From: Escherichia phage Ec_Makalu_002
Sequence record: MN709127.1
Reading direction: 5' to 3' (one strand)
DNA length: 64,000 nucleotides
Position 1 is the first letter of the stretch. Each line of letters begins with the position of its first letter. Positions 3,147-25,719 of this stretch are shown piece by piece. A program made the position numbers and the translations under genes. The notes under the pieces were generated by a model. That model saw only the letters and a program-made list of their open reading frames with translations. It had not been told where the DNA came from and did no database searches.

Positions 3147-3154
3147 TATAAATA
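3147..3154 (+). promoter_or_regulatory. T4-type late promoter box TATAAATA upstream of uvsW
   Basis: Exact TATAAATA about 37 nt upstream of the ATG at 3191. Confidence 0.55.
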
Positions 3155-5688: not shown

Positions 5689-6087
5689 TCATTTTGCAAG
5701 TCTTATGCGTAGTTGTTCAAGATCATCTGGGTTATCTATTACTGAAAAGTAGATTGATACTATGATTGAATTATCGTCGTACTGCGGAGTTACTTCTACT
5801 GTCAGGTTTCGGACCCGTGGTTCATAGTTTCGGATTGCCTCATTAATGTTTTTTGATAAGGTATCCACTGTCAGTGGGTTCATGTTCTCAAACAGTGATT
5901 TATTGAGGTCACATCCAAACAGTGGATCAAATGGACGAGATCCCTTGCGAGTAGTCACGATCAGTAGAATAGAATCCTTAACCGCTTTAATTCCTATGTT
6001 CTTTTTAACGTCGTTATTCCACGATCTGGATATATTGAGATCCAAATCAGTATACATCTGATTAATTGTTGCCATGTTATACCTCAA
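5689..6087 (-). CDS. 25: baseplate wedge protein gp25
   Basis: 132 aa; TTRKGSRPFDPLFGCDL and FSVIDNPDD match remembered T4 gp25. Confidence 0.9.
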   Translation of the reverse strand: MRYNMATINQMYTDLDLNISRSWNNDVKKNIGIKAVKDSILLIVTTRKGSRPFDPLFGCDLNKSLFENMNPLTVDTLSKNINEAIRNYEPRVRNLTVEVTPQYDDNSIIVSIYFSVIDNPDDLEQLRIRLAK

Positions 6088-6713
6088 AGAATTTTAAGGA
6101 AACTGGATAGACCTGATAATGAATATACACCAGATTCCCCGCATTCGCATTTGATCGGTACTGCCAGCGTGATTTGATTTCTTGTTAGCTCGTCGATCAC
6201 TTCTTCCACTTTATCCGTGGTAAGCATATCCAACACGCGGTCAAAGTCCTGCGCGTTCAGGTCGTCTATATTGAATTGCTGATCGCCGATCACGATATAT
6301 TCGATACATGCAATTACCATCTGCATAATATCAACATCTTCTGTAAACTTAGGTTGACGAAACTTGATTTTTACTTGTCCTAAGTCTAGAATATACGGTT
6401 CGACTTCTGGTATCTGTGTGCGTGAAACATCAAGAGAATATACTTTCTCTTTATTGCATACACCACACACCCAAGTAGCATCAATTTTCATCTTATTGAG
6501 GCTGTGACACCATAAGAGAAGAAAAATATATTCTGCTTCGCATTTCTCTAGCTCTAATGCATTGATCCCCGTACATTCGTATATAATCTCTATAACAACA
6601 TCTGACAGCTTGCCAGTCTCTTTTGCTGCTACCAGTTTTTGAAATTCGCCGAAGGTGAAAGCACGGGCGTGTATCAACTTTTCGCCTATTTGGATCTTGA
6701 AAAAGTATTGCAT
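6084..6713 (-). CDS. 26: baseplate hub protein gp26
   Basis: 209 aa; position between 25 and 51; Cys pairs; paralogous to adjacent gp51. Confidence 0.7.
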   Translation of the reverse strand: MQYFFKIQIGEKLIHARAFTFGEFQKLVAAKETGKLSDVVIEIIYECTGINALELEKCEAEYIFLLLWCHSLNKMKIDATWVCGVCNKEKVYSLDVSRTQIPEVEPYILDLGQVKIKFRQPKFTEDVDIMQMVIACIEYIVIGDQQFNIDDLNAQDFDRVLDMLTTDKVEEVIDELTRNQITLAVPIKCECGESGVYSLSGLSSFLKIL

Positions 6714-9159: not shown

Positions 9160-10889
9160 ATGACGCATTAACATCATTTCGCGGGATGCGCAAGGAAGCG
9201 GAAGAAAATCCGATTGATAAACTTAACAAATTAGATAAACTTGATTCTATTGATAATTTGCAAGCCGCTACCGAATTGGTGGCGGAGACAGTAGAACAAA
9301 AATCTAATGAAGTTGTTGGTGCGGTAGAGGATAACACCGCAGCCAATGAATTAACGGCAGAGAATACACAATCTACCGCTGGCAATACCCAAAAAACTTA
9401 TGAAGAATTGCAAAAACTCAATAATTTCTCTTCTCAGATGAATGAGAAATTACGTGGTTTTGGCGTTATGATGGAACGTAGATTTGGTGTTGTCAGTAAA
9501 ATGGCGAGCGGTATTGGTGCGATTGAAGAAGCACTGAAAAAACCGGAACAACCGCAAACAATGCCATCACCTCAGCCAGTTTTGCCTACTGTACCGGAAC
9601 AGCCTAATAATGACAACTATCAAGGTCTTCCAAAGAAAAAACCAGATGTTGATGACCGAAAGAAAAAGAACGCCACAGATAAGCGTAATGCGGATTCTAT
9701 GGAGAATCTTATTAAAGTTGTTCGTGGTGGATTTAAAGAAACCATAGGAATCTCTAATAAGGTCTTAGGGATGTTATTTAAGATCACCTTAACCGCAATG
9801 GCAGAAGCCGCAAAATGGGGTGCTATTTTGATGGGTATTGTTTTCGTCATTGATACCCTGATGGTTCATTTCAGATATTGGAGCGATTTATTCGAAACAA
9901 AATTCGATGATTTTATGGATAAGGCCGGAGAATGGGCTGGACCAATTAGTGATATTCTAACAACTATTCGTCAAGTTCGAGATTATTGGTCTAAAGGCGA
10001 ATATGGAGAATTAATTAAATCTCTTGTTATGGGTATTGGTGATGCATTCTATAAAACCTTTATCCAACTTGATCGAATTATCACTACTGGTATTGCTAAA
10101 ATTCTTCGCATGATTCCTGGTATGGGTGATTATGCCGATAAGTTAGAATATGGTGCTTTAAAATCTGCTGTCGCTCAAGGATATACGCCAAATGAAAGAG
10201 AACTCGAATTAATGGATAAGGTCGAGTCTGAACACGAAAAAGACAAGTATGGAGAGCGCACAGGGTGGACCGGAAAAGCCCGTGATATTGGCGAAGCTAT
10301 CGGGGATTCTATTAAGGATAAAGTTAACGAAGGTCTTGTTAGTCTGGGTTGGCGAGATCAAAAGGATGTTGACGCAGAGAAGCGACAAGAAGAATTAAAG
10401 CGCGGAGAATATGAGTCTGTTTCTGCTGAACAACGATCTGCTAGTCGTAAACTTAGAATTAAAAGTGAGGGCGCGATCAACAATATTAATGAAGTTATGG
10501 AGAATTTGAGCGGTGACTATGACAAAGAAAGAATGGGAGAGTTGAAAAAGGATATTGATGTTTACCGTGAGAAAGTTCAAGATCCTACATTAGTTGAAAG
10601 TGATCGTTCTCAGTTAGAGCGTCTTATTGAAAAATTTGATGAGATGTATGCTGATAAAACTAAGGGTGTTGTGCAAACACAGCCAGTTCCTGCAACTGAA
10701 ACGGAAACAGCAAAACAAGCGGAACGTACTGAACAAATGCAGAAACAAGCTGCAATCCAGCAACAAACGACAAATCAGACCTCAAACGTAAATAATACAC
10801 AAATTGTAACAAACAATAGAACTATTAAACAGGGTGCACCAACAACTAGAATTGATGCCCCAGGTACAATTAATATGGGGAACTTTTAA
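9156..10889 (+). CDS. 29: baseplate hub / tail-length determinant gp29
   Basis: 577 aa; synteny, size, ATGA-coupled to gp28. Confidence 0.8.
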   Translation: MNDALTSFRGMRKEAEENPIDKLNKLDKLDSIDNLQAATELVAETVEQKSNEVVGAVEDNTAANELTAENTQSTAGNTQKTYEELQKLNNFSSQMNEKLRGFGVMMERRFGVVSKMASGIGAIEEALKKPEQPQTMPSPQPVLPTVPEQPNNDNYQGLPKKKPDVDDRKKKNATDKRNADSMENLIKVVRGGFKETIGISNKVLGMLFKITLTAMAEAAKWGAILMGIVFVIDTLMVHFRYWSDLFETKFDDFMDKAGEWAGPISDILTTIRQVRDYWSKGEYGELIKSLVMGIGDAFYKTFIQLDRIITTGIAKILRMIPGMGDYADKLEYGALKSAVAQGYTPNERELELMDKVESEHEKDKYGERTGWTGKARDIGEAIGDSIKDKVNEGLVSLGWRDQKDVDAEKRQEELKRGEYESVSAEQRSASRKLRIKSEGAINNINEVMENLSGDYDKERMGELKKDIDVYREKVQDPTLVESDRSQLERLIEKFDEMYADKTKGVVQTQPVPATETETAKQAERTEQMQKQAAIQQQTTNQTSNVNNTQIVTNNRTIKQGAPTTRIDAPGTINMGNF

Positions 10890-17802: not shown

Positions 17803-18515
17803 AGATCCTTATTGGCTTCAAATACTGCCTTTGCGAATCCTCGCGGGGTAAGTGACCTGATAGTCTTTGTTCTGGTTCCTTTCCCGCCTAGCTTAGAATG
17901 CTGTTTACTGTACCCTTTATTAATCTGCAACGGTTTCTTTTCTGGCATTATAAAGCCTTGTCCGGTCCATAAGCAAGTCTTTTTCGGGTACATATCACGG
18001 GCGGCAATATACTCAGGAAACGTAGGATGCTTATCATCTTCCGGCAAATAACCGCCATATTCCCACGGATGGAACATGTAATCAGGCTTACGCCACATGC
18101 TAGAGATAACGCTTACAGGATTCTCTATCATGTAGGGAACTCCTAGCCATTCACCCAAATAAGCGGTTATTTTAGCTGCCCTTACATCATGAACTTGAAT
18201 TAATGGTCCTTGTTCTCGTTTCTTTCGTTCAAAGTGCGCAGCGCCACTAACAGCTAAATTGGTGCATGGTGGGAATGCAAAGATAATATCCGGTTTCCCC
18301 CATTCAAGGTCCATTGCTCTTTCCAGCCAATTTAAATCAATCCATGTGTTTACATATGTAATGTTTGGATGTTCAAATCGGGTATTATATTTTTTGTATG
18401 TACCGTGGTCGCCATCGTCAGCATTAAAGCAGATCACCTTATGACCTGCTTTAGCCCATTCTAACCCCATTATCCCCGATCCGTCAAAGTTGCAGAATAT
18501 TAATTTTTGTTTCAT
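17799..18515 (-). CDS. C5-cytosine-methyltransferase-like protein (SAM-dependent MTase fold, no obvious target-recognition domain)
   Basis: Motif I-like FDGSGIMG, motif IV-like FPPC with catalytic Cys, motif VI-like IENP; 238 aa. Confidence 0.5.
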   Translation of the reverse strand: MKQKLIFCNFDGSGIMGLEWAKAGHKVICFNADDGDHGTYKKYNTRFEHPNITYVNTWIDLNWLERAMDLEWGKPDIIFAFPPCTNLAVSGAAHFERKKREQGPLIQVHDVRAAKITAYLGEWLGVPYMIENPVSVISSMWRKPDYMFHPWEYGGYLPEDDKHPTFPEYIAARDMYPKKTCLWTGQGFIMPEKKPLQINKGYSKQHSKLGGKGTRTKTIRSLTPRGFAKAVFEANKDL

Positions 18516-18757
18516 ATACGCCCCTTTAACCCAACACAGATTTTAGAAGGTTCTTTGCCGTGCCACATTAAGTAAATTCCGTTAATGCGTCCTTGTTTTG
18601 TATATGATTCTTTTCTGATCTTCTTATAGTGTCGTGCTTCCTCAGCCGATTGTTTAGAATGTCGATCATAAAGGAAGAGGAACAAAGGCCAACCATTAGC
18701 GGCCTTAATGCAGTTATTCAAAAATTCCTTATTTCGTTTAATTAATTTTCTTTTCAC
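18512..18757 (-). CDS. hypothetical basic protein (81 aa)
   Basis: ORF track; apparent GTG start overlapping upstream stop. Confidence 0.4.
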   Translation of the reverse strand: MKRKLIKRNKEFLNNCIKAANGWPLFLFLYDRHSKQSAEEARHYKKIRKESYTKQGRINGIYLMWHGKEPSKICVGLKGRI

Positions 18758-19005
18758 GCTGCCCCCATTGGTTTGATAGTAACAGAATCTAAAAGACCTT
18801 TGTTAGCCAGTTCGCGGCAAGTTTTCAGATCCGCAACTTCCCAGCCAGCCGCAATAAGGTTATCAATGAGGCTGTTAGCAACTTCTTCGCTCATGAAAGA
18901 GCACTGTTTGCCGATGGTGTAGCGTACACGCTGTAATTTCAGTTTACGGAAGCCTTTAACGTTCAGGTCTTTAGCGATTTTCTTTGCGGTTTCGATGTTA
19001 GCCAT
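18754..19005 (-). CDS. hypothetical protein (83 aa), first gene of the 5-gene operon
   Basis: ATG with RBS and promoter just upstream. Confidence 0.5.
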   Translation of the reverse strand: MANIETAKKIAKDLNVKGFRKLKLQRVRYTIGKQCSFMSEEVANSLIDNLIAAGWEVADLKTCRELANKGLLDSVTIKPMGAA

Positions 19006-19045
19006 TGTTTGATTCTCCTAAGTGGTATCTCGTCTTGATGGTTGT

Positions 19046-19074
19046 ATTGTAGGGGAGTTATCCTCCCCTGTCAA
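19046..19074 (-). promoter_or_regulatory. sigma70-like early promoter for the 19005-16950 operon (TTGACA-GGGGAGGATAACTCCCC-TACAAT)
   Basis: -35/-10 at 17-nt spacing; palindromic spacer; conserved leader. Confidence 0.5.
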
Positions 19075-19088
19075 CACTTTTTATAAAA

Positions 19089-19256
19089 TTATTTGTTAAT
19101 TTCTGGTGCGTTGCTAGGATAGTAACCTTCTTTAACTCCGAGGTATTTCGCAACCATCCCTACAATCTTCTGTGCTACTACAATGTCAAATTTCAGATAA
19201 TCTTCGCCGTGGGTTTCAATGATATATGCTTCACATGCTGCTTTAGTCTCGAACAT
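19089..19256 (-). CDS. hypothetical small protein (55 aa), paralog A of the 22372-22539 gene
   Basis: Hand-translated MFETKAACEAYIIETHGEDYLKFDIVVAQKIVGMVAKYLGVKEGYYPSNAPEINK. Confidence 0.5.
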   Translation of the reverse strand: MFETKAACEAYIIETHGEDYLKFDIVVAQKIVGMVAKYLGVKEGYYPSNAPEINK

Positions 19257-19289
19257 TTTGATTCTCCTATTTCGTTTCGGTATGTGTGT

Positions 19290-19318
19290 ATTATAGGGGA
19301 TCTCCCGATCCCCGTCAA
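19290..19318 (-). promoter_or_regulatory. sigma70-like early promoter (TTGACG-17-TATAAT)
   Basis: Palindromic GC spacer GGGATCGGGAGATCCCC. Confidence 0.5.
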
Positions 19319-19332
19319 CAACTTTTTTAAAA

Positions 19333-19614
19333 TTATTCGTGATTAGTTTCGATATTGTGCATTTTGCACCAGTTCAGCCAATCGCCAAGATCTTGATAGT
19401 TGATGCTTTTATCTGCTGCCATCGTTTTTGTCTTGATACCCATATGTGCGTTATGAGTAAGCATTTTTACAGTGAACTCAATTTTATCGCCTTTAGCTTT
19501 AACATCAACCAGTTTGGTCCACTGGCTACCAGCACCGCGAATGTTCATACCAACGATGTTTCCGATGTATGCTTCTTTGTTGTTCAGGATTTCGGTTGCT
19601 TTGATGAATTTCAT
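19333..19614 (-). CDS. hypothetical protein (93 aa)
   Basis: ORF track; ATG, RBS, own promoter. Confidence 0.5.
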   Translation of the reverse strand: MKFIKATEILNNKEAYIGNIVGMNIRGAGSQWTKLVDVKAKGDKIEFTVKMLTHNAHMGIKTKTMAADKSINYQDLGDWLNWCKMHNIETNHE

Positions 19615-19647
19615 TTTTGATTCTCCAGTTCGTTTCGGTATGGGTGT

Positions 19648-19676
19648 ATTATGCTATGTTCTTACTTTGGTGTCAA
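19648..19676 (-). promoter_or_regulatory. sigma70-like early promoter (TTGACA-17-CATAAT)
   Basis: Hexamers at 17-nt spacing upstream of conserved leader. Confidence 0.4.
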
Positions 19677-19684
19677 CAACTTTT

Positions 19685-19954
19685 TTAGATATTTTCAGAA
19701 ATAAATTTTAAAACTTGACGTAAATGTTTCTCATCTTTGATAGTCGCCGGAAGTTCTTCTTTTACTTCCTGTGCAAGATAGATATTTCCGTTCCAAGTGA
19801 AAGACCCGTCTTCGTTTACGCGATAGCTGAACATCCATTCGCAATCATTTTCGATTTCATATACACACAGAAGGGTGTAATCTTCAAAGCTATTGATTTC
19901 AAGGTCGAAGCCGTGGCGTTTTGCAAAGTTGGTAGTGGTTTTAGTCAGTGCCAT
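19685..19954 (-). CDS. hypothetical protein (89 aa)
   Basis: ORF track; ATG and RBS. Confidence 0.5.
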   Translation of the reverse strand: MALTKTTTNFAKRHGFDLEINSFEDYTLLCVYEIENDCEWMFSYRVNEDGSFTWNGNIYLAQEVKEELPATIKDEKHLRQVLKFISENI

Positions 19955-19994
19955 TGTTTGATTCTCCTAAGTGGTATCTCGTTTCGATGGGTGT

Positions 19995-20023
19995 ATTATG
20001 CTATAGGCGTGATCAGGTGTCAA
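19995..20023 (-). promoter_or_regulatory. sigma70-like early promoter (TTGACA-17-CATAAT)
   Basis: Hexamers at 17-nt spacing. Confidence 0.4.
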
Positions 20024-20047
20024 TGCCTTTTTTAAAATTTTATGCAA

Positions 20048-20072
20048 TAAAAAAGCCGACACTAAGGTCGGC
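20048..20072 (-). terminator. rho-independent terminator
   Basis: GCCGACCTTAGTGTCGGC followed by TTTTTTATT on minus strand. Confidence 0.55.
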
Positions 20073-20080
20073 TAATAAAA

Positions 20081-20536
20081 TCATTTAGACAAATAATCAT
20101 TCAGTGCAATCCGGTCGGCATGTTCCGGCGTTACATCAATCGCAATCACTTTAACGCGTGCTTTCTTGCGACCTGGGTTTTCTCGTAACCAGTGCTCATG
20201 ACCGTGAACATTTTTATACTGCGATGCTTCTTCGAAGGTACGGATCGGACCAGGGTAATCAGCGTAAAGGATCTCTAGGTCATCGGTGATGTAAAAATAT
20301 ACGTTGTAATTACTGTTCTCTAGCTTAAGCAGAGACTTTCGGAACATTGGGAGATTTTCGCGGGTAAATTCAAAAGTAATATCTTTCATAGTATTATCCT
20401 CAATAGTTGGATGAAAAGGGGGCTTAACGCCCCATATATTAAAACAGTCCTTCCTGTACACCGTAGTAGAGTTCGTCGCTGATAATTTCATTAATGCGAC
20501 GGTGTGCATATTCCTGATTTGCGAAGTTGTCAGCAA
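20081..20536 (-). CDS. His-motif family small protein, member 1
   Basis: YFYITDDL ... HGHEHW ... VIAIDV; ATG at about 20389 with GAGGA RBS more likely (102 aa). Confidence 0.5.
   Translation of the reverse strand: MLTTSQIRNMHTVALMKLSATNSTTVYRKDCFNIWGVKPPFHPTIEDNTMKDITFEFTRENLPMFRKSLLKLENSNYNVYFYITDDLEILYADYPGPIRTFEEASQYKNVHGHEHWLRENPGRKKARVKVIAIDVTPEHADRIALNDYLSK
20414..20433 (-). terminator. terminator-like hairpin
   Basis: GGGGCGTTAAGCCCC followed by CTTTTC on minus strand. Confidence 0.4.
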
Positions 20537-20726
20537 GTTCTACTTTAGTTTCACCGTCATGAGTCCATTTAGTGATAACTTTACCATCTGCAAATTTGAA
20601 GTTGAACTCTTTAGCTACTGCATCGCGTACCAGACGTGCGAACTTGTTGTTACGGATTGCATTATCGGTTTCGTGTGCAGCGTGAGCAAATTTGTTAACT
20701 TTCAGAGTGATAGTGATGTATGCCAT
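20439..20726 (-). CDS. hypothetical protein (95 aa)
   Basis: ORF track; ATG, RBS, own promoter. Confidence 0.5.
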   Translation of the reverse strand: MAYITITLKVNKFAHAAHETDNAIRNNKFARLVRDAVAKEFNFKFADGKVITKWTHDGETKVELADNFANQEYAHRRINEIISDELYYGVQEGLF

Positions 20727-20772
20727 AATTTGATTCTCCTAGTTAGAAAGTGTATCTCGTTTCGATGGGTGT

Positions 20773-20801
20773 ATTATGCTATACACCCGATCTTATGTCA
20801 A
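20773..20801 (-). promoter_or_regulatory. sigma70-like early promoter (TTGACA-17-CATAAT)
   Basis: Hexamers at 17-nt spacing; palindrome GGGTGTAT..ATACACCC. Confidence 0.4.
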
Positions 20802-20809
20802 CACTTTTT

Positions 20810-21103
20810 TTATAAAATAATTTTTTGATATTTTTCTATGATGTTTGTGTAATCCACATCAACCGCTATCACCGTTGCTTCGAATCCACCGTTTAGCCAA
20901 TGGCTATGGTCATGATCGTGAAAGAAACCAAGACCAGTACGAAGACCTTCTTTATATTCGGCGCGTACATTTAGATCATCATCGATAAACAGATAAAACC
21001 ATGAATTTTTACTAGGATTGATGATACAACCTTTCAGATTAGGGAGAATATCACGACTAAGAATAAACTTATCACCTACTTTGAACATAATATTAGTCCT
21101 CAC
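20810..21103 (-). CDS. His-motif family small protein, member 2
   Basis: FYLFIDDDL ... HDHDHSHW ... VIAVDV; ATG at about 21088 more likely. Confidence 0.5.
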   Translation of the reverse strand: MRTNIMFKVGDKFILSRDILPNLKGCIINPSKNSWFYLFIDDDLNVRAEYKEGLRTGLGFFHDHDHSHWLNGGFEATVIAVDVDYTNIIEKYQKIIL

Positions 21104-21494
21104 TTATAAGGTCAAACCAATTGTTTTTCGCATAATGCTTAATGCGTGCTTGATCTGCTTCCGCTGGTGATAGATTCCATGCAACCACTACAACTTCTGA
21201 CGCGTCGTCATCCGTTTCTGATACCCAATGATTGTGATTCATACAGTTATTTGCGATCGAGTGAGCAAATGATTTCATCACTGGAGACGTATAATCATAG
21301 TAACGGATTTTCAGATTTTCATCAACATACAAGTAGATCGTATAAGGTTTATATTCAGTAACCAGTAACAGACAGTTACGCAATTCTGGGAAAATCTTTT
21401 TAGTTAATTTCATTTTATAATCCTCGGTCGCGGCTATAGTACACGGTACGCCATACAATTTCATGTTTCGTGTCGCTCCAGCACACGATCTCAT
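21093..21494 (-). CDS. His-motif family small protein, member 3
   Basis: IYLYVDENL ... NHNHW ... VVVVAW; ATG at about 21413 more likely (106 aa). Confidence 0.5.
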   Translation of the reverse strand: MRSCAGATRNMKLYGVPCTIAATEDYKMKLTKKIFPELRNCLLLVTEYKPYTIYLYVDENLKIRYYDYTSPVMKSFAHSIANNCMNHNHWVSETDDDASEVVVVAWNLSPAEADQARIKHYAKNNWFDLISED

Positions 21495-21654
21495 TTACTC
21501 TTAAATCTTTGTTATCAACAAAAGATGAACATTGTGACGCTTCTTTCATCATTTTATCTGCTGTTTTCTCATCAAATACAGCACAGATTTCTTTATACAC
21601 TCGATAATCTTTGAATTGACTCTGGATACCCATAATTAACACCATTCCAACCAA
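21415..21654 (-). CDS. hypothetical small protein, tandem paralog of 21593-21850
   Basis: Shared motif FKDY.VYKEI...F(D/A)EK.A(D/E)KMM(K/E)(E/D)AS.C.SF; likely start about 21633. Confidence 0.45.
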   Translation of the reverse strand: MVGMVLIMGIQSQFKDYRVYKEICAVFDEKTADKMMKEASQCSSFVDNKDLRVNEIVCWSDTKHEIVWRTVYYSRDRGL

Positions 21655-21850
21655 TTGTTTTTGAGAAAACGTTTATCCACTGTTGAGTGTAGCATGTTTC
21701 TTTCCATGATACAATACGAGTAGAATAATGGTTTTTGTTTCCAGAAAAGGACGGGCATTTTGATGCATCTTCCATCATCTTTTCGGCGAACTCCGCGTCA
21801 TATACCCGCAGGATCTGTTGATATGCTTTATAATCTTTAAATTTGCTCAT
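21593..21850 (-). CDS. hypothetical small protein, tandem paralog of 21415-21654
   Basis: ORF track; see paralog. Confidence 0.45.
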   Translation of the reverse strand: MSKFKDYKAYQQILRVYDAEFAEKMMEDASKCPSFSGNKNHYSTRIVSWKETCYTQQWINVFSKTIGWNGVNYGYPESIQRLSSV

Positions 21851-22115
21851 AATTGTTAACTACCTTATCAGCTTCTTTTATTGTTTTTACATCAACTGCG
21901 ATAATCCGTAAAGGTTCGTCGAAGGTCCACCAGTGGTCATGAATATCAGCTTGTGATTTATCACCAAAGGAATCACGAATATCATTTTTACATTTATAGC
22001 TAATATGGCCTTCATAGTCAACATAAAGGTAATTATCGAAAATCGGCGTTTTTAAGATCATACCGAAAAATCTTTCTTTGTGTGTCTTATCAAGTGTTGC
22101 AGTAATTCGCATCAT
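21837..22115 (-). CDS. His-motif family small protein, member 4
   Basis: YLYVDYEG ... HDHWW ... IIAVDV; ATG with GAGGA RBS. Confidence 0.55.
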   Translation of the reverse strand: MMRITATLDKTHKERFFGMILKTPIFDNYLYVDYEGHISYKCKNDIRDSFGDKSQADIHDHWWTFDEPLRIIAVDVKTIKEADKVVNNYEQI

Positions 22116-22127
22116 AATATATTCCTC

Positions 22128-22307
22128 TTAGAAAGGGATGGTCATTTCTTGAGCTTGTACATTCTCGTTAGGATTAAACTTCATCCAACCGATATTGTCT
22201 ACCAGCATATGTACATTTTTATCATATCCTACGTGAGTAGTCAACACTAAATGTGCTTTACCTTCAACGATGATTTCCATGTACTTCTGAACTTCGATAG
22301 CTTTCAT
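22128..22307 (-). CDS. hypothetical small protein (59 aa)
   Basis: Hand-translated (MKAIEVQKYMEIIVEGKAHLVL...); RBS GGAGAA; own promoter. Confidence 0.4.
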   Translation of the reverse strand: MKAIEVQKYMEIIVEGKAHLVLTTHVGYDKNVHMLVDNIGWMKFNPNENVQAQEMTIPF

Positions 22308-22339
22308 TTTGATTCTCCGTTTGTTGTCTTGATGGGAGT

Positions 22340-22368
22340 ATCTTACTACTCCCTTTAATCATTGTCAA
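22340..22368 (-). promoter_or_regulatory. sigma70-like early promoter (TTGACA-17-TAAGAT)
   Basis: Hexamers at 17-nt spacing; palindrome GGGAGTA..TACTCCC around -10. Confidence 0.4.
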
Positions 22369-22371
22369 CTA

Positions 22372-22695
22372 TTATTTGTTAATTTCCGGTGCGTTGCTCG
22401 GATAGTAACCTTCTTTAACACCCAGATATTTTGCAACCATTCCGGTGATCTTCTGTGCTACTACGATATCGAATTTCAGGTAGTCTTCACCGTGGTTTGC
22501 TACAATGTATGCTTCGCATTCTGCTTTAGTCTGGAACATTTTTGATTCTCCTATATCTCGTTGGTATGTGTGCATTATAGGGGATCGGTGATCCCCTGTC
22601 AACAACTTTTTATGATTTTTCTTTATATGCGTATTGAATAAATTGGTCCGCCACTTCGTCGGCTTTTTCGGGTTTGACTTCTGACGCCAGGACAA
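22372..22695 (-). CDS. hypothetical small protein, paralog B of the 19089-19256 gene
   Basis: Upstream part of track ORF is read-through of the leader (MHTY..GES); real gene probably 22372-22539 (55 aa, 49/55 identical to paralog A). Confidence 0.5.
   Translation of the reverse strand: MSWRQKSNPKKPTKWRTNLFNTHIKKNHKKLLTGDHRSPIMHTYQRDIGESKMFQTKAECEAYIVANHGEDYLKFDIVVAQKITGMVAKYLGVKEGYYPSNAPEINK
22574..22602 (-). promoter_or_regulatory. sigma70-like early promoter (TTGACA-GGGGATCACCGATCCCC-TATAAT)
   Basis: Consensus hexamers, 17-nt palindromic spacer. Confidence 0.5.
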
Positions 22696-22906
22696 TAGCT
22701 AGATCGGTTTCGTCGTTCCCGTCATACCAATGATTATGAGTGTCTTTTTCTTTGATATAGAATGAGTCATTTGGAGTTGGACGACAATATACGTCTAAAT
22801 TCTCGTCGATGTAAAAGATCCAATCTTCATAAAGAATAACCGTATTAGCAAGGTTCTTATTACCTTCAACGAAAGGTTCGGTTACAAACAAATCAGTACG
22901 TTCCAT
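22610..22906 (-). CDS. His-motif family small protein, member 5
   Basis: WIFYIDENL ... THNHW ... AIVLASEV. Confidence 0.55.
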   Translation of the reverse strand: MERTDLFVTEPFVEGNKNLANTVILYEDWIFYIDENLDVYCRPTPNDSFYIKEKDTHNHWYDGNDETDLAIVLASEVKPEKADEVADQFIQYAYKEKS

Positions 22907-22921
22907 AGTATTTTCCTCAAA

Positions 22922-23083
22922 TTAAGAAAAAGCGTTGAAAACAACCGCCAACACAACTACGTTAGCGATAAGGCTTAAAAAGCATTTCTTGAAACTTTCA
23001 GTGCAGATACCAATACTGGCAGGAATTACACCGATCACGATAGCATAAAGAATAACTGCGATTTCTTGAAATACACCGTTCAT
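22922..23083 (-). CDS. hypothetical small hydrophobic protein (53 aa)
   Basis: Hand-translated (MNGVFQEIAVILYAIVIGVIPASIG...); predicted membrane peptide. Confidence 0.35.
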   Translation of the reverse strand: MNGVFQEIAVILYAIVIGVIPASIGICTESFKKCFLSLIANVVVLAVVFNAFS

Positions 23084-23140
23084 AATATTATCCTCAAAGT
23101 ATGGGAGAGTGTTACCCCTCCCGATGATTGTTATATTGCA

Positions 23141-23473
23141 TCACACAAAATGGCGTGTCAATGCTTCTTTTGCGGTTCCGCTAAGATTCTCGATCTCTCC
23201 TGGCATAACATCAACCGCCAGAACTTCTACAACATCCTCTGTTCCTAACCAGTGAGTATGACCTTTGTAGAACTTGATGCCCATATTGCCTTCTTCGTCC
23301 CATTTAACGCCCCATTTAACGTTATCACTAGCCCACCACACATCACCGTCGATAAAGTTGATGTAAAGCACACTACGCCACATTGAATTAGTTACTTTCA
23401 ATACCGCGCCTTTCATCTCTTCCACGGTGTGGTCTTCCATTTTGAAGACCTCGCCTACCTGAACTTTTGCCAT
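23141..23473 (-). CDS. His-motif family small protein, member 6
   Basis: LYINFIDGD ... GHTHW ... VLAVDV. Confidence 0.55.
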   Translation of the reverse strand: MAKVQVGEVFKMEDHTVEEMKGAVLKVTNSMWRSVLYINFIDGDVWWASDNVKWGVKWDEEGNMGIKFYKGHTHWLGTEDVVEVLAVDVMPGEIENLSGTAKEALTRHFV

Positions 23474-23490
23474 TTAGTCACCTCTCTTTA

Positions 23491-23706
23491 TTACATAACA
23501 ATCACGCCAGCCGTTGAAAGTTGATGTTTCAACTGAGCATTTTCTGCTACTGTCAAATCAATGATTTCTTGTGACGCTGCAATCATATAGCCATTGGTGA
23601 TATTGTTTTGCATCAGTTCAATGGTTTCTTCGTTGTAGCGGATTTTAGCGATGATTTCGTTGAAGTTCATGTTTGATTCTCCTAGTTCGTTTCGGTATGT
23701 GTGCAT
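23491..23706 (-). CDS. hypothetical small protein
   Basis: Track ORF includes leader read-through; likely ATG at about 23670 (59 aa, MNFNEIIAKIRY...). Confidence 0.45.
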   Translation of the reverse strand: MHTYRNELGESNMNFNEIIAKIRYNEETIELMQNNITNGYMIAASQEIIDLTVAENAQLKHQLSTAGVIVM

Positions 23707-23734
23707 TATAGGGGATCTCCCGACCCCCTGTCAA
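23705..23734 (-). promoter_or_regulatory. sigma70-like early promoter (TTGACA-18-TATAAT)
   Basis: Palindromic GC spacer GGGGGTCGGGAGATCCCC. Confidence 0.45.
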
Positions 23735-23747
23735 CAACTTTTTTGAA

Positions 23748-24224
23748 TTATTTTTCTTGATGCTCGCGCTCGTACTTTTCGAAATAAAATTCTACTGGCT
23801 GATCGTGGATTGAAAGCAAGCCAAAGCGTTTAGCCGCACGTAATCCCATGTTACGTTGAATGTACTTCTGGAAGTTCTCGCGTATACACTTACGCCAGTA
23901 TTCTAAGCCCATACAGCTTTTGTAAAGATTGCATTGCACACAAGCCGGATTCATGTTGTCAAGTATATCGTGCTCCGGTTTATGCATTCCTACAACCTTA
24001 TACTTCCACGACCCATCATCATTACGGGCAATTCGTCCATTTTCATCATAGACTACTTTTGAGCGTCGCAATACTGGTTTGATGTGGTCTGCGTGCCAGC
24101 GATCCCCTAGTTCCTCGCCACAATAGGCACAACGTCCACCGTATTTCATTTTCAGGATCTGGCGTTGCTCTTTCTTTGACAATTTTTTAGGTTTAGGGGC
24201 TTTCGCCCCTTCATTATCACACAT
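23748..24224 (-). CDS. HNH endonuclease
   Basis: CAYCGEEL...WHADHIKP...N...CVQCN (HNH with Zn-ligand Cys pairs); 158 aa. Confidence 0.7.
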   Translation of the reverse strand: MCDNEGAKAPKPKKLSKKEQRQILKMKYGGRCAYCGEELGDRWHADHIKPVLRRSKVVYDENGRIARNDDGSWKYKVVGMHKPEHDILDNMNPACVQCNLYKSCMGLEYWRKCIRENFQKYIQRNMGLRAAKRFGLLSIHDQPVEFYFEKYEREHQEK

Positions 24225-25719
24225 CGAATACCTCTTTTACTGTATTTGCAGTGGTCTTGTCGTAGCGAATACGTTTGATGATTGGGAGAAATAAAGAGAA
24301 CTCCGGTTCATCTTCTTTACGTGATTTGCTGCGGATATATCCGTTGCATGTCATCTCAATGACTTTTCCAATCAGGTTATGACGGTCAGCCCATAACATT
24401 TCTCGGTCAAGTTCATTTCGACGATCGAACGGAATTACACGTTCAATACCATCATCACCTTTTTCGGTTGTGGTGTCTGTCAATCCCGATCCGGTGTTAG
24501 TCATCATTCGTCCGCACGCACTACGGACAGTAAAACCGCCTACCTTGTTAGGTTCTTTACTGTGCGGATATACATCAACAATTTCCGCGTCGAAGTCAAT
24601 CACTTCTTTAAATTTAACCTGGTCTTTACTGCGACGATCTTCAAATACACCATGTAAATTTTTAAGGATAATACCTTCTAATCCCATGTTGACATAACGA
24701 TGATATACTTCGCGAGCTTCATCGATATTGTTAACTACAGTATTTTCGATTATCTGAACACGAGGATCGTTAAGTTCTTCAACAATCTGTTTTAGTTCTT
24801 CGAATCGATCTTTATATTGCTTCGTTGCTTTCTCGTTTCCGTAATACACATCACGGTCGATAACATCCCAGACAGTGTAAACAATACATTGGGCTTCTTC
24901 TTTTGGAATAGTTCCTTTCAGTGATTTGTTGAGGATACCATTTCCGGTCTGACGGTCTGCAACAACGGATTCTTTCACTGCTTCCGCTACTGGCGTTAAT
25001 GGCATTTCCTCTTCTTCAAATATCCATGATAGAGTACCATCATAAACGCTCTCAACGAAGTTCTGCGCTGGTGTTTGAGAAAGGGTAGGCATATATACCA
25101 ACTCACCATCTAAAACAATTCCACGGCCTCGTAGACGCTCTAAAACAGCAAACAAATCATCCAGCCCCTGATAGGTATTACCTGAACGGGTATAGATTGC
25201 TAATGTTTCTCCGTCAATATCAGCCATACCACGAGCGCCATCGCTTTTAAGTTGTGCATACGCCGGATATTTGATATTGGCAATAGTCTTATCAGAACAT
25301 GACGATGCAAGGTGGCACGGCTGCTGAGGAATCAGCTTCTTCCATACCTTGTTTGCGGTGGTAGCGGAACAACCGCATTCCAGATCACGATTCAGGACCA
25401 TCATTGCAACTTTAGCATCATCTTCTGACAAGCAAGTCAGAGTATCGGTAACTAGCTGTAATGCAGCATTACCAGTTACTTGACGCGTGGCAAGTTTATT
25501 TTTAAAGACCTGTAATGCACCGGATAAAGACAATACAGACGAATAGCGAGACGGTTTATCGTATTTCTTTACGCCAAACGTAACCTGCTTGCAATATGCC
25601 AGATAAAAGCATTCTTTCAGCGTTTCATTGCTTGCAGATTCTTTCAGGATCTTTTCTTTCAGCGATGTTTTGTCAGTAGCTGCAAGCTGATTAATGATAT
25701 TAAGAATTGACATTTTCAC
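24217..25719 (-). CDS. 30: ATP-dependent DNA ligase gp30
   Basis: AQLKSDGARG adenylation motif with catalytic Lys; aligns with remembered T4 ligase; ATG at about 25713 likely. Confidence 0.9.
   Translation of the reverse strand: MKMSILNIINQLAATDKTSLKEKILKESASNETLKECFYLAYCKQVTFGVKKYDKPSRYSSVLSLSGALQVFKNKLATRQVTGNAALQLVTDTLTCLSEDDAKVAMMVLNRDLECGCSATTANKVWKKLIPQQPCHLASSCSDKTIANIKYPAYAQLKSDGARGMADIDGETLAIYTRSGNTYQGLDDLFAVLERLRGRGIVLDGELVYMPTLSQTPAQNFVESVYDGTLSWIFEEEEMPLTPVAEAVKESVVADRQTGNGILNKSLKGTIPKEEAQCIVYTVWDVIDRDVYYGNEKATKQYKDRFEELKQIVEELNDPRVQIIENTVVNNIDEAREVYHRYVNMGLEGIILKNLHGVFEDRRSKDQVKFKEVIDFDAEIVDVYPHSKEPNKVGGFTVRSACGRMMTNTGSGLTDTTTEKGDDGIERVIPFDRRNELDREMLWADRHNLIGKVIEMTCNGYIRSKSRKEDEPEFSLFLPIIKRIRYDKTTANTVKEVFDV

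Follow-up and report, generated by a model that had tools for sequence, protein, structure and literature searches.

The stretch analysed here, 64,000 nucleotides (nt) of Escherichia phage Ec_Makalu_002 (MN709127.1; hereafter the window), belongs to a Krischvirus (RB49-like) T4-type coliphage genome. Six small genes at 20081–23473, here named m1 to m6, are true paralogs and form a single protein family. Their products share the signature Yx[IV]D ... HxHW ... V[IL]AxDV. We tentatively propose that they are early, individually dispensable, non-enzymatic binding modules that have diversified in their targets, a reading to which we give somewhat less than even weight.

The six genes are located in the hyperplastic accessory region that runs from DNA ligase (gp30) to Alt (RB49 open reading frames [ORFs] ~190–211). 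The equivalent stretch of RB49 is flanked by a DNA methyltransferase and an HNH/DNA ligase gp30, and all genes there are annotated as "hypothetical". The gene starts listed below were corrected by Shine-Dalgarno sites and orthologue lengths. A GAGG Shine-Dalgarno sequence was found 7–10 nt upstream of the start in each of the six genes. An alternative GTG start of m2, giving 97 amino acids (aa), is unlikely.

20081–20389, minus strand: m1, 102 aa, HGHEHW; orthologue of RB49p197; final gene of its early unit, with a hairpin upstream and a terminator downstream
20810–21088, minus strand: m2, 92 aa from MFKVGDK, HDHDHSHW; orthologue of RB49p199
21093–21413, minus strand: m3, 106 aa, NHNHW; orthologue of RB49p200
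21837–22115, minus strand: m4, 92 aa, HDHWW; orthologue of RB49p203
22610–22906, minus strand: m5, 98 aa, THNHW, strongly acidic (isoelectric point [pI] 4.3); orthologue of RB49p206
23141–23473, minus strand: m6, 110 aa, GHTHW; orthologue of RB49p208

Six divergent paralogs under selection

Pairwise identity among the six proteins was just 17–27%. Each was compared by phmmer with the complete set of 1015 stop-to-stop segments from the window. The six formed one connected graph, with expectation (E) values from 1e-12 to 7e-3, and the top non-self matches of members were other members. The closest paralog of m1 was m3 (E 1e-12). Hidden Markov models (HMMs) built with one member left out found the omitted member in every case (E 1.1e-13, 4.8e-10, 9.3e-10, 3.3e-6, 2.7e-8, and 4.5e-7). 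The omitted member always ranked directly behind the five training sequences, and the best non-member had an E value of at least 0.02. Profile searches of the 1015 segments found no seventh member in the window. ORF 5692–6093, with leave-one-out E values of 0.02–0.05, was considered as a member and dropped, as it failed E ≤ 1 with a broader profile.

A preliminary description, made from the sequence, had proposed a six-ORF family with a [FY][YL][FY][IV]D strand, the His motifs listed above, and a C-terminal [VI][IV]A[VI]DV-like strand. All of these elements are present, the last as V[IL]AxDV, and the phmmer and HMM searches gave them statistical support. The proposal that a single family had expanded within one accessory region was likewise borne out, the region being a hyperplastic region of a T4-type phage. 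In PHROGs, the window proteins matched phrog_9345, 17255, 15972, 15965, and 16486 (E 1e-46 to 1e-65), all of "unknown function". The orthologue groups are thus already catalogued there, but the family is divided among five groups, whose relatedness is hinted at by no more than weak cross-hits (E 2e-5 to 9e-3); its unification, shared fold, and signature are not recorded.

The six genes were intact in all seven compared Krischvirus genomes. The ratio of nonsynonymous to synonymous divergence (dN/dS) was 0.21 for m1, 0.20 for m2, 0.11 for m3, 0.16 for m4, and 0.26 for m5, and dS was substantial. The m6 value of 0.49 came from one ungapped comparison only, the other m6 alleles differing by in-frame indels, which fall in the loop preceding the HxHW motif. 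Variation hot spots of m1 were residues 61–63 and 72–74, in loops beside HxHW. The family is kept by selection. In the annotations of phages kvi and JSE, the m1 product is frameshifted; if these frameshifts are not sequencing errors, single members are dispensable.

An opposite explanation is that the ORFs are non-functional and that their similarity comes from repeated non-coding or decaying sequence. It could draw on the purely "hypothetical" annotations and on the seemingly truncated m1 products of kvi and JSE. Against it stand the low dN/dS of m1–m5 (0.11–0.26) at substantial dS, the intact genes in every compared genome, the conserved Shine-Dalgarno sites, and the confident and concordant AlphaFold2 folds described below. 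In addition, the DNA repeats of the region are promoter cassettes, not family ORFs. This explanation is effectively refuted.

The m5 allele of the window was unusual. It had 72–79% protein identity to most Krischvirus orthologues and at best 87.6% (phage UPWr_E1). Its dS was ~0.6 versus ~0.1–0.2 in neighbouring genes. This divergence suggests allele exchange with a diverged lineage.

Distribution and age

The region 20081–23473 had 92–96% nt identity to ~50 complete Krischvirus genomes (RB49, phi1, JSE, FL15, Makalu, and others), and no other phage group matched it in a search of 50,697 records. The 55 phage records that a tblastn search with m5 (E ≤ 10) matched were without exception of Krischvirus type. 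When all 1.84 billion representative proteins were searched with the family profile, 22 matched at E ≤ 1e-3, 20 of them small Krischvirus-type proteins. The other two, both large, were rejected as generic beta-hairpin or short-motif matches with motif spacing unlike that of the family, namely an RCC1-like repeat protein (P0097) and a repeat lipoprotein containing FYINxxxGxEHWL (P0099). The full-family alignment held no stretch conserved enough for pattern scanning of viral contigs. Scans of IMG/VR and JGI with an m5-type alignment found two loci each, all Krischvirus-like. A wider distribution across T4-like phages, raised in the preliminary description, was therefore not seen, and the family is limited to Krischvirus and a few uncultured near relatives.

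In these uncultured relatives (~71–75% nt identity), the family sits in the same ligase-to-Alt region. Locus L004 has two members, and L002 has five family domains in 2.1 kb. In one protein from an uncultured relative (P0085), two m2-type domains are naturally fused in tandem. Neighbour-joining placed the distant homologues inside the m1/m3, m2, m4, m5, and m6 subfamilies, indicating that the paralogs split before those lineages diverged. The family is an old, subfunctionalised set that did not arise by recent amplification. On L017, a Krischvirus-like metagenomic contig of 168.9 kb, divergent m3-type paralogs of 107 and 111 aa fill both the m3 slot and the m2 slot (9989–10671). This is within-family gene replacement, and turnover continues.

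An extra 88-aa gene lies between the 59-aa ORF described below and m6 in some Krischviruses (FL15, G37-3, L017, and L019). Its positions are as follows.

L006 4977–5243, L007 5829–6095, L017 7918–8184, and L019 763–1032: 88-aa gene; absent in the window between 23473 and 23491

Compared with the family by hhalign, it gave a probability of 85.6% and an E value of 5.5e-6, and NGHLI replaces HxHW. From this comparison, it is probably a divergent seventh family member.

Promoter-distal positions in early operons

The promoters and terminator-like elements around the six genes are listed below. Numbers out of 12 are matches to the sigma-70 hexamers.

23705–23734, minus strand: early promoter of PeSL (promoter/stem-loop cassette) type, TTGACA-18-TATAAT, 12/12, with a GGGGG..CCCC stem in the spacer
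22574–22602, minus strand: PeSL-type early promoter, 12/12, preceding a non-family 55-aa ORF (22372–22539)
22340–22368, minus strand: early promoter, 10/12
20773–20801, minus strand: PeSL-type early promoter, 11/12
19046–19074, 19290–19318, 19648–19676, and 19995–20023, minus strand: remaining PeSL cassettes
20419–20433, minus strand: GC hairpin, GGGGCgttaaGCCCC then CTTTTCAT, between the 95-aa ORF and m1
20054–20073, minus strand: intrinsic terminator, 7-bp stem plus TTTTTTATT, ending the unit after m1

The family genes fall into three transcription units. The unit from promoter 23734–23705 contains a 59-aa ORF (23491–23670), m6, a hairpin, a 53-aa membrane ORF, and m5. That from promoter 22368–22340 is tightly packed and contains another 59-aa ORF (22128–22307), m4, two small paralogous ORFs, m3, and m2. 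The third, from promoter 20801–20773, contains a 95-aa ORF (20439–20726), the hairpin at 20433–20419, m1, and the terminator at 20073–20054. Each of the six members is the second or a later gene of its unit and is preceded by a Shine-Dalgarno site only. A promoter scan of the region found no sigma-70 promoter belonging to any of them. One match, at 21115–21087, was rejected as an m2 promoter: it ends on the base just before the m2 ATG and is therefore unable to serve m2. The preliminary description had given most members their own promoters. This has to be revised, as every sigma-70 match of 10–12/12 with the right geometry lies in front of some other small gene.

The hairpin at 20419–20433 is likely an attenuator that m1 transcription has to read through; at the equivalent site in G37-3, a terminator is annotated. 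Both m1 and m5 may be attenuated by the hairpins upstream of them.

No T4-type late promoter (TATAAATA) was found within 18500–24300. The whole window contains five copies of this motif, four of them heading plus-strand late genes, a total that is not above chance. These four, at 3147, 6756, 44842, and 49953 on the plus strand, lie 28–41 nt upstream of ORF starts 3176, 6784, 44878, and 49994, a placement that fits late structural operons.

As is characteristic of T4-type early genes, a sigma-70-type promoter heads each family unit, a late promoter is absent, and the strand is that of the early region. On these signals, the six are predicted to lie promoter-distally in three early operons with sigma-70 (PeSL) promoters; their products are therefore predicted to be made in the first minutes of infection, through transcription by host RNA polymerase.

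The region as a whole carries eight near-consensus sigma-70 cassettes on the minus strand within 5 kb. They fall into repeat families of ~64–81 nt and are the PeSL elements known from RB49 and phi1; in most of them, a GGGG..CCCC stem separates the -35 and -10 hexamers. The PeSLs of the RB49/phi1 hyperplastic region were studied earlier (Arbiol et al. 2010, PMC2839356), and the ORFan and PeSL cassette literature also includes Comeau et al. 2014 (PMC4122927). The present genes resemble the RB49/phi1 ORFans in genome type, in region, and in promoter/stem-loop cassettes, and also as small, non-essential early genes without known homologues. Two differences were found. Arbiol et al. (PMC2839356) treated the ORFs as unrelated ORFans, whereas the six genes here are one family. 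The family members are also not PeSL-proximal cassette genes; they lie distal to these, and they persist throughout the genus instead of being shuffled in and out. None of the six is a gene directly behind its own PeSL with a second PeSL as boundary. The regulatory picture is thus corrected: PeSL promoters serve other, near-invariant small genes, and the family rides behind.

Several observations were made on the neighbouring genes. The PeSL-proximal genes 20439–20726, 22372–22539, and 23491–23670 (95, 55, and 59 aa) had 98–100% protein identity across seven genomes. Their dN was ~0 and their dS 0.03–0.11, and the distal HxHW genes evolved faster (dN 0.015–0.16). The 55-aa gene is doubled together with its upstream PeSL (19089–19256 and 22372–22539, minus strand), in a 172-nt repeat that is 85% identical; the two proteins begin MFETKAACEAY and MFQTKAECEAY. 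This cassette duplication is comparatively recent, in contrast to the old HxHW paralogs. The predicted membrane ORF of 53 aa in the m6–m5 gap (22922–23083, minus strand) had no PHROG match and was present in two of the seven compared genomes (FL15 and G37-3). RB49 and others have a different 63-aa ORF in its slot, indicating cassette replacement. A second paralogous pair lies immediately upstream of m3 (21415–21634 and 21593–21850, minus strand). Its products of 72 and 85 aa have 43% identity (E 1e-17) and belong to phrog_8471. On metagenomic contig L016 (318–1100), two domains of this 72/85-aa type are fused with an m3-type domain in one 260-aa ORF, a fusion that may mark a functional link.

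Predicted fold, HxHW motif, and possible function

Structure models, proposed as a check in the preliminary description, were built with AlphaFold2 from family alignments for m1 and m2. Both were confident, with a predicted local distance difference test score of 86.2 for m1 and 86.3 for m2 and a predicted template modelling score of 0.80. They have one shared element order. In the predicted topology, b1 is followed by a short helix, by b2, and by the b3/b4 hairpin with YxYID; after a long variable loop, another short helix starts at HxHW and leads to b5, with V[IL]AxDV, and to a C-terminal helix. With pI values of 4.3–6.4, the proteins appear to be soluble, mildly to strongly acidic alpha/beta proteins of ~90–110 aa.

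Pfam and PDB sequence-profile searches gave nothing significant, and the BFVD search returned nothing but the family itself. None of 25 members matched a PADLOC anti-phage defence model at E ≤ 1. Among the closest known systems were Tis1 (PA14_01140; PDB 6ox6_B), which confers immunity to the type VI (p)ppApp-synthetase toxin Tas1, and the phage anti-defence mini-proteins Tad2 (DUF2188) and AcrIIA7 (PDB 9eib_A and 8kbi_A). We treat them as leads only. Weaker recurring matches were Cif, YopQ, and mS34. Judged from the models, the family fold has no convincing solved counterpart.

Among 98 homologues, only H66 and W67 (m1 numbering) were strictly invariant. The majority residue was identical in all six subfamilies at H64, H66, W67, A83, and V86; five of the six subfamilies agreed at Y33, V81, and D85, and four at D35 and D92. 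H64 was present in ~90% of the homologues and was replaced by S or D in the m5-type clusters P0078, P0079, and P0082, of which P0079 holds 25 member sequences. The family alignment contained no conserved Cys. D35, D85, and D92 were each substituted in at least one subfamily.

The His cluster had first been taken as a sign of metal binding. In this reading, the His residues of HxH(W) would bind Zn2+, Ni2+, or Fe2+, together with D35, D85, and D92 in a monomer or as a four-His site in a dimer, and the proteins would be metal-dependent enzymes, metallochaperones, or metal-stabilised binders. The H64-x-H66 pair across all six subfamilies, the extended alternating runs of the m2 type (HDHDHSHW/HDHSHW) and of m1 (HGHEHW), the semi-conserved acidic residues, and the P0085 tandem fusion, which hints at dimers, all favour it. 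However, H64 is lost in real, multi-member m5-type clusters, Cys is not conserved, and the probable seventh member has NGHLI. Where at least three strictly conserved His, Cys, Asp, or Glu residues were sought as ligands, only H66 was invariant. With two His residues, one of them dispensable, there is no family-wide mononuclear site within the monomer. Metal binding as a property of the family is thus unsupported, and we consider this reading unlikely; proteins of the m2 subfamily, with their HDHSHW run, might still bind metal, as might a site formed between the subunits of a dimer.

Two other functions seem less probable still. The proteins might be small-molecule sponges whose oligomers bind and withhold the nucleotides of host immune signalling, in the manner of Tad1, Tad2, and Acb2. 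The Trp would then stack on the base, the His would contact the phosphate, and the paralogs would be tuned to different signals; we regard this as improbable. A role as KOW/SH3-like nucleic-acid binders acting on transcription or translation is very doubtful. One metagenomic m2 orthologue carries the label "KOW2-KOW3 domains of Spt5", but no significant KOW/SH3 profile match was obtained, and no five-strand barrel was among the top structural neighbours.

Target-diversified binding modules are our tentative proposal. A conserved scaffold would be held together by the invariant His-Trp pair and strands b3 and b5. The loops flanking HxHW and the termini vary between paralogs, and the core would present these variable loops. 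Each paralog may bind, modulate, or inhibit a different host or host-defence target. The modules are probably dimeric, as the P0085 tandem suggests. The family would have expanded through target diversification, not dosage.

A bolder and improbable possibility is that the proteins are a new fold class of early effectors, in which the His-Trp pair is the active surface of homo- or heterodimers and forms a bridging metal site or a pocket that takes up an immune-signalling or other small molecule. If so, six or seven specialised versions would neutralise several host defence or stress pathways and make up a compact, genus-wide counter-defence battery. In that case, the in-frame fusion on L016, in which two domains of the neighbouring 85-aa type are joined to one of m3 type, would point to a physical partner.

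Literature searches on RB49 locus tags, Krischvirus paralogs, and RB49 anti-defence found nothing about these genes. The text of Arbiol et al. 2010 (PMC2839356) mentions neither "paralog" nor ORF197–208; that of Comeau et al. 2014 was not searched for these terms. The gene sequences have been public since the sequencing of RB49, and the PeSL biology is published; we found no record of the six ORFans as one family sharing a fold and a signature. The protein family is new and its category is familiar, that of small early accessory genes of T4-type hyperplastic regions.

T4-type phages have large hyperplastic regions of small early genes, the source of many host-takeover and counter-defence factors. 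In the window, six "hypothetical" genes (~1.8 kb, ~1% of the genome) prove to form a single old family whose fold is predicted with confidence. Six orphans thereby become one tractable target, with one signature, one scaffold, natural variants without the first His, a tandem fusion, and H66 and W67 as evident sites for mutagenesis. Since the family occurs in a single genus of coliphages, one with therapeutic use, and is kept in all compared genomes, its function probably bears on how Krischvirus infection differs from that of T4.

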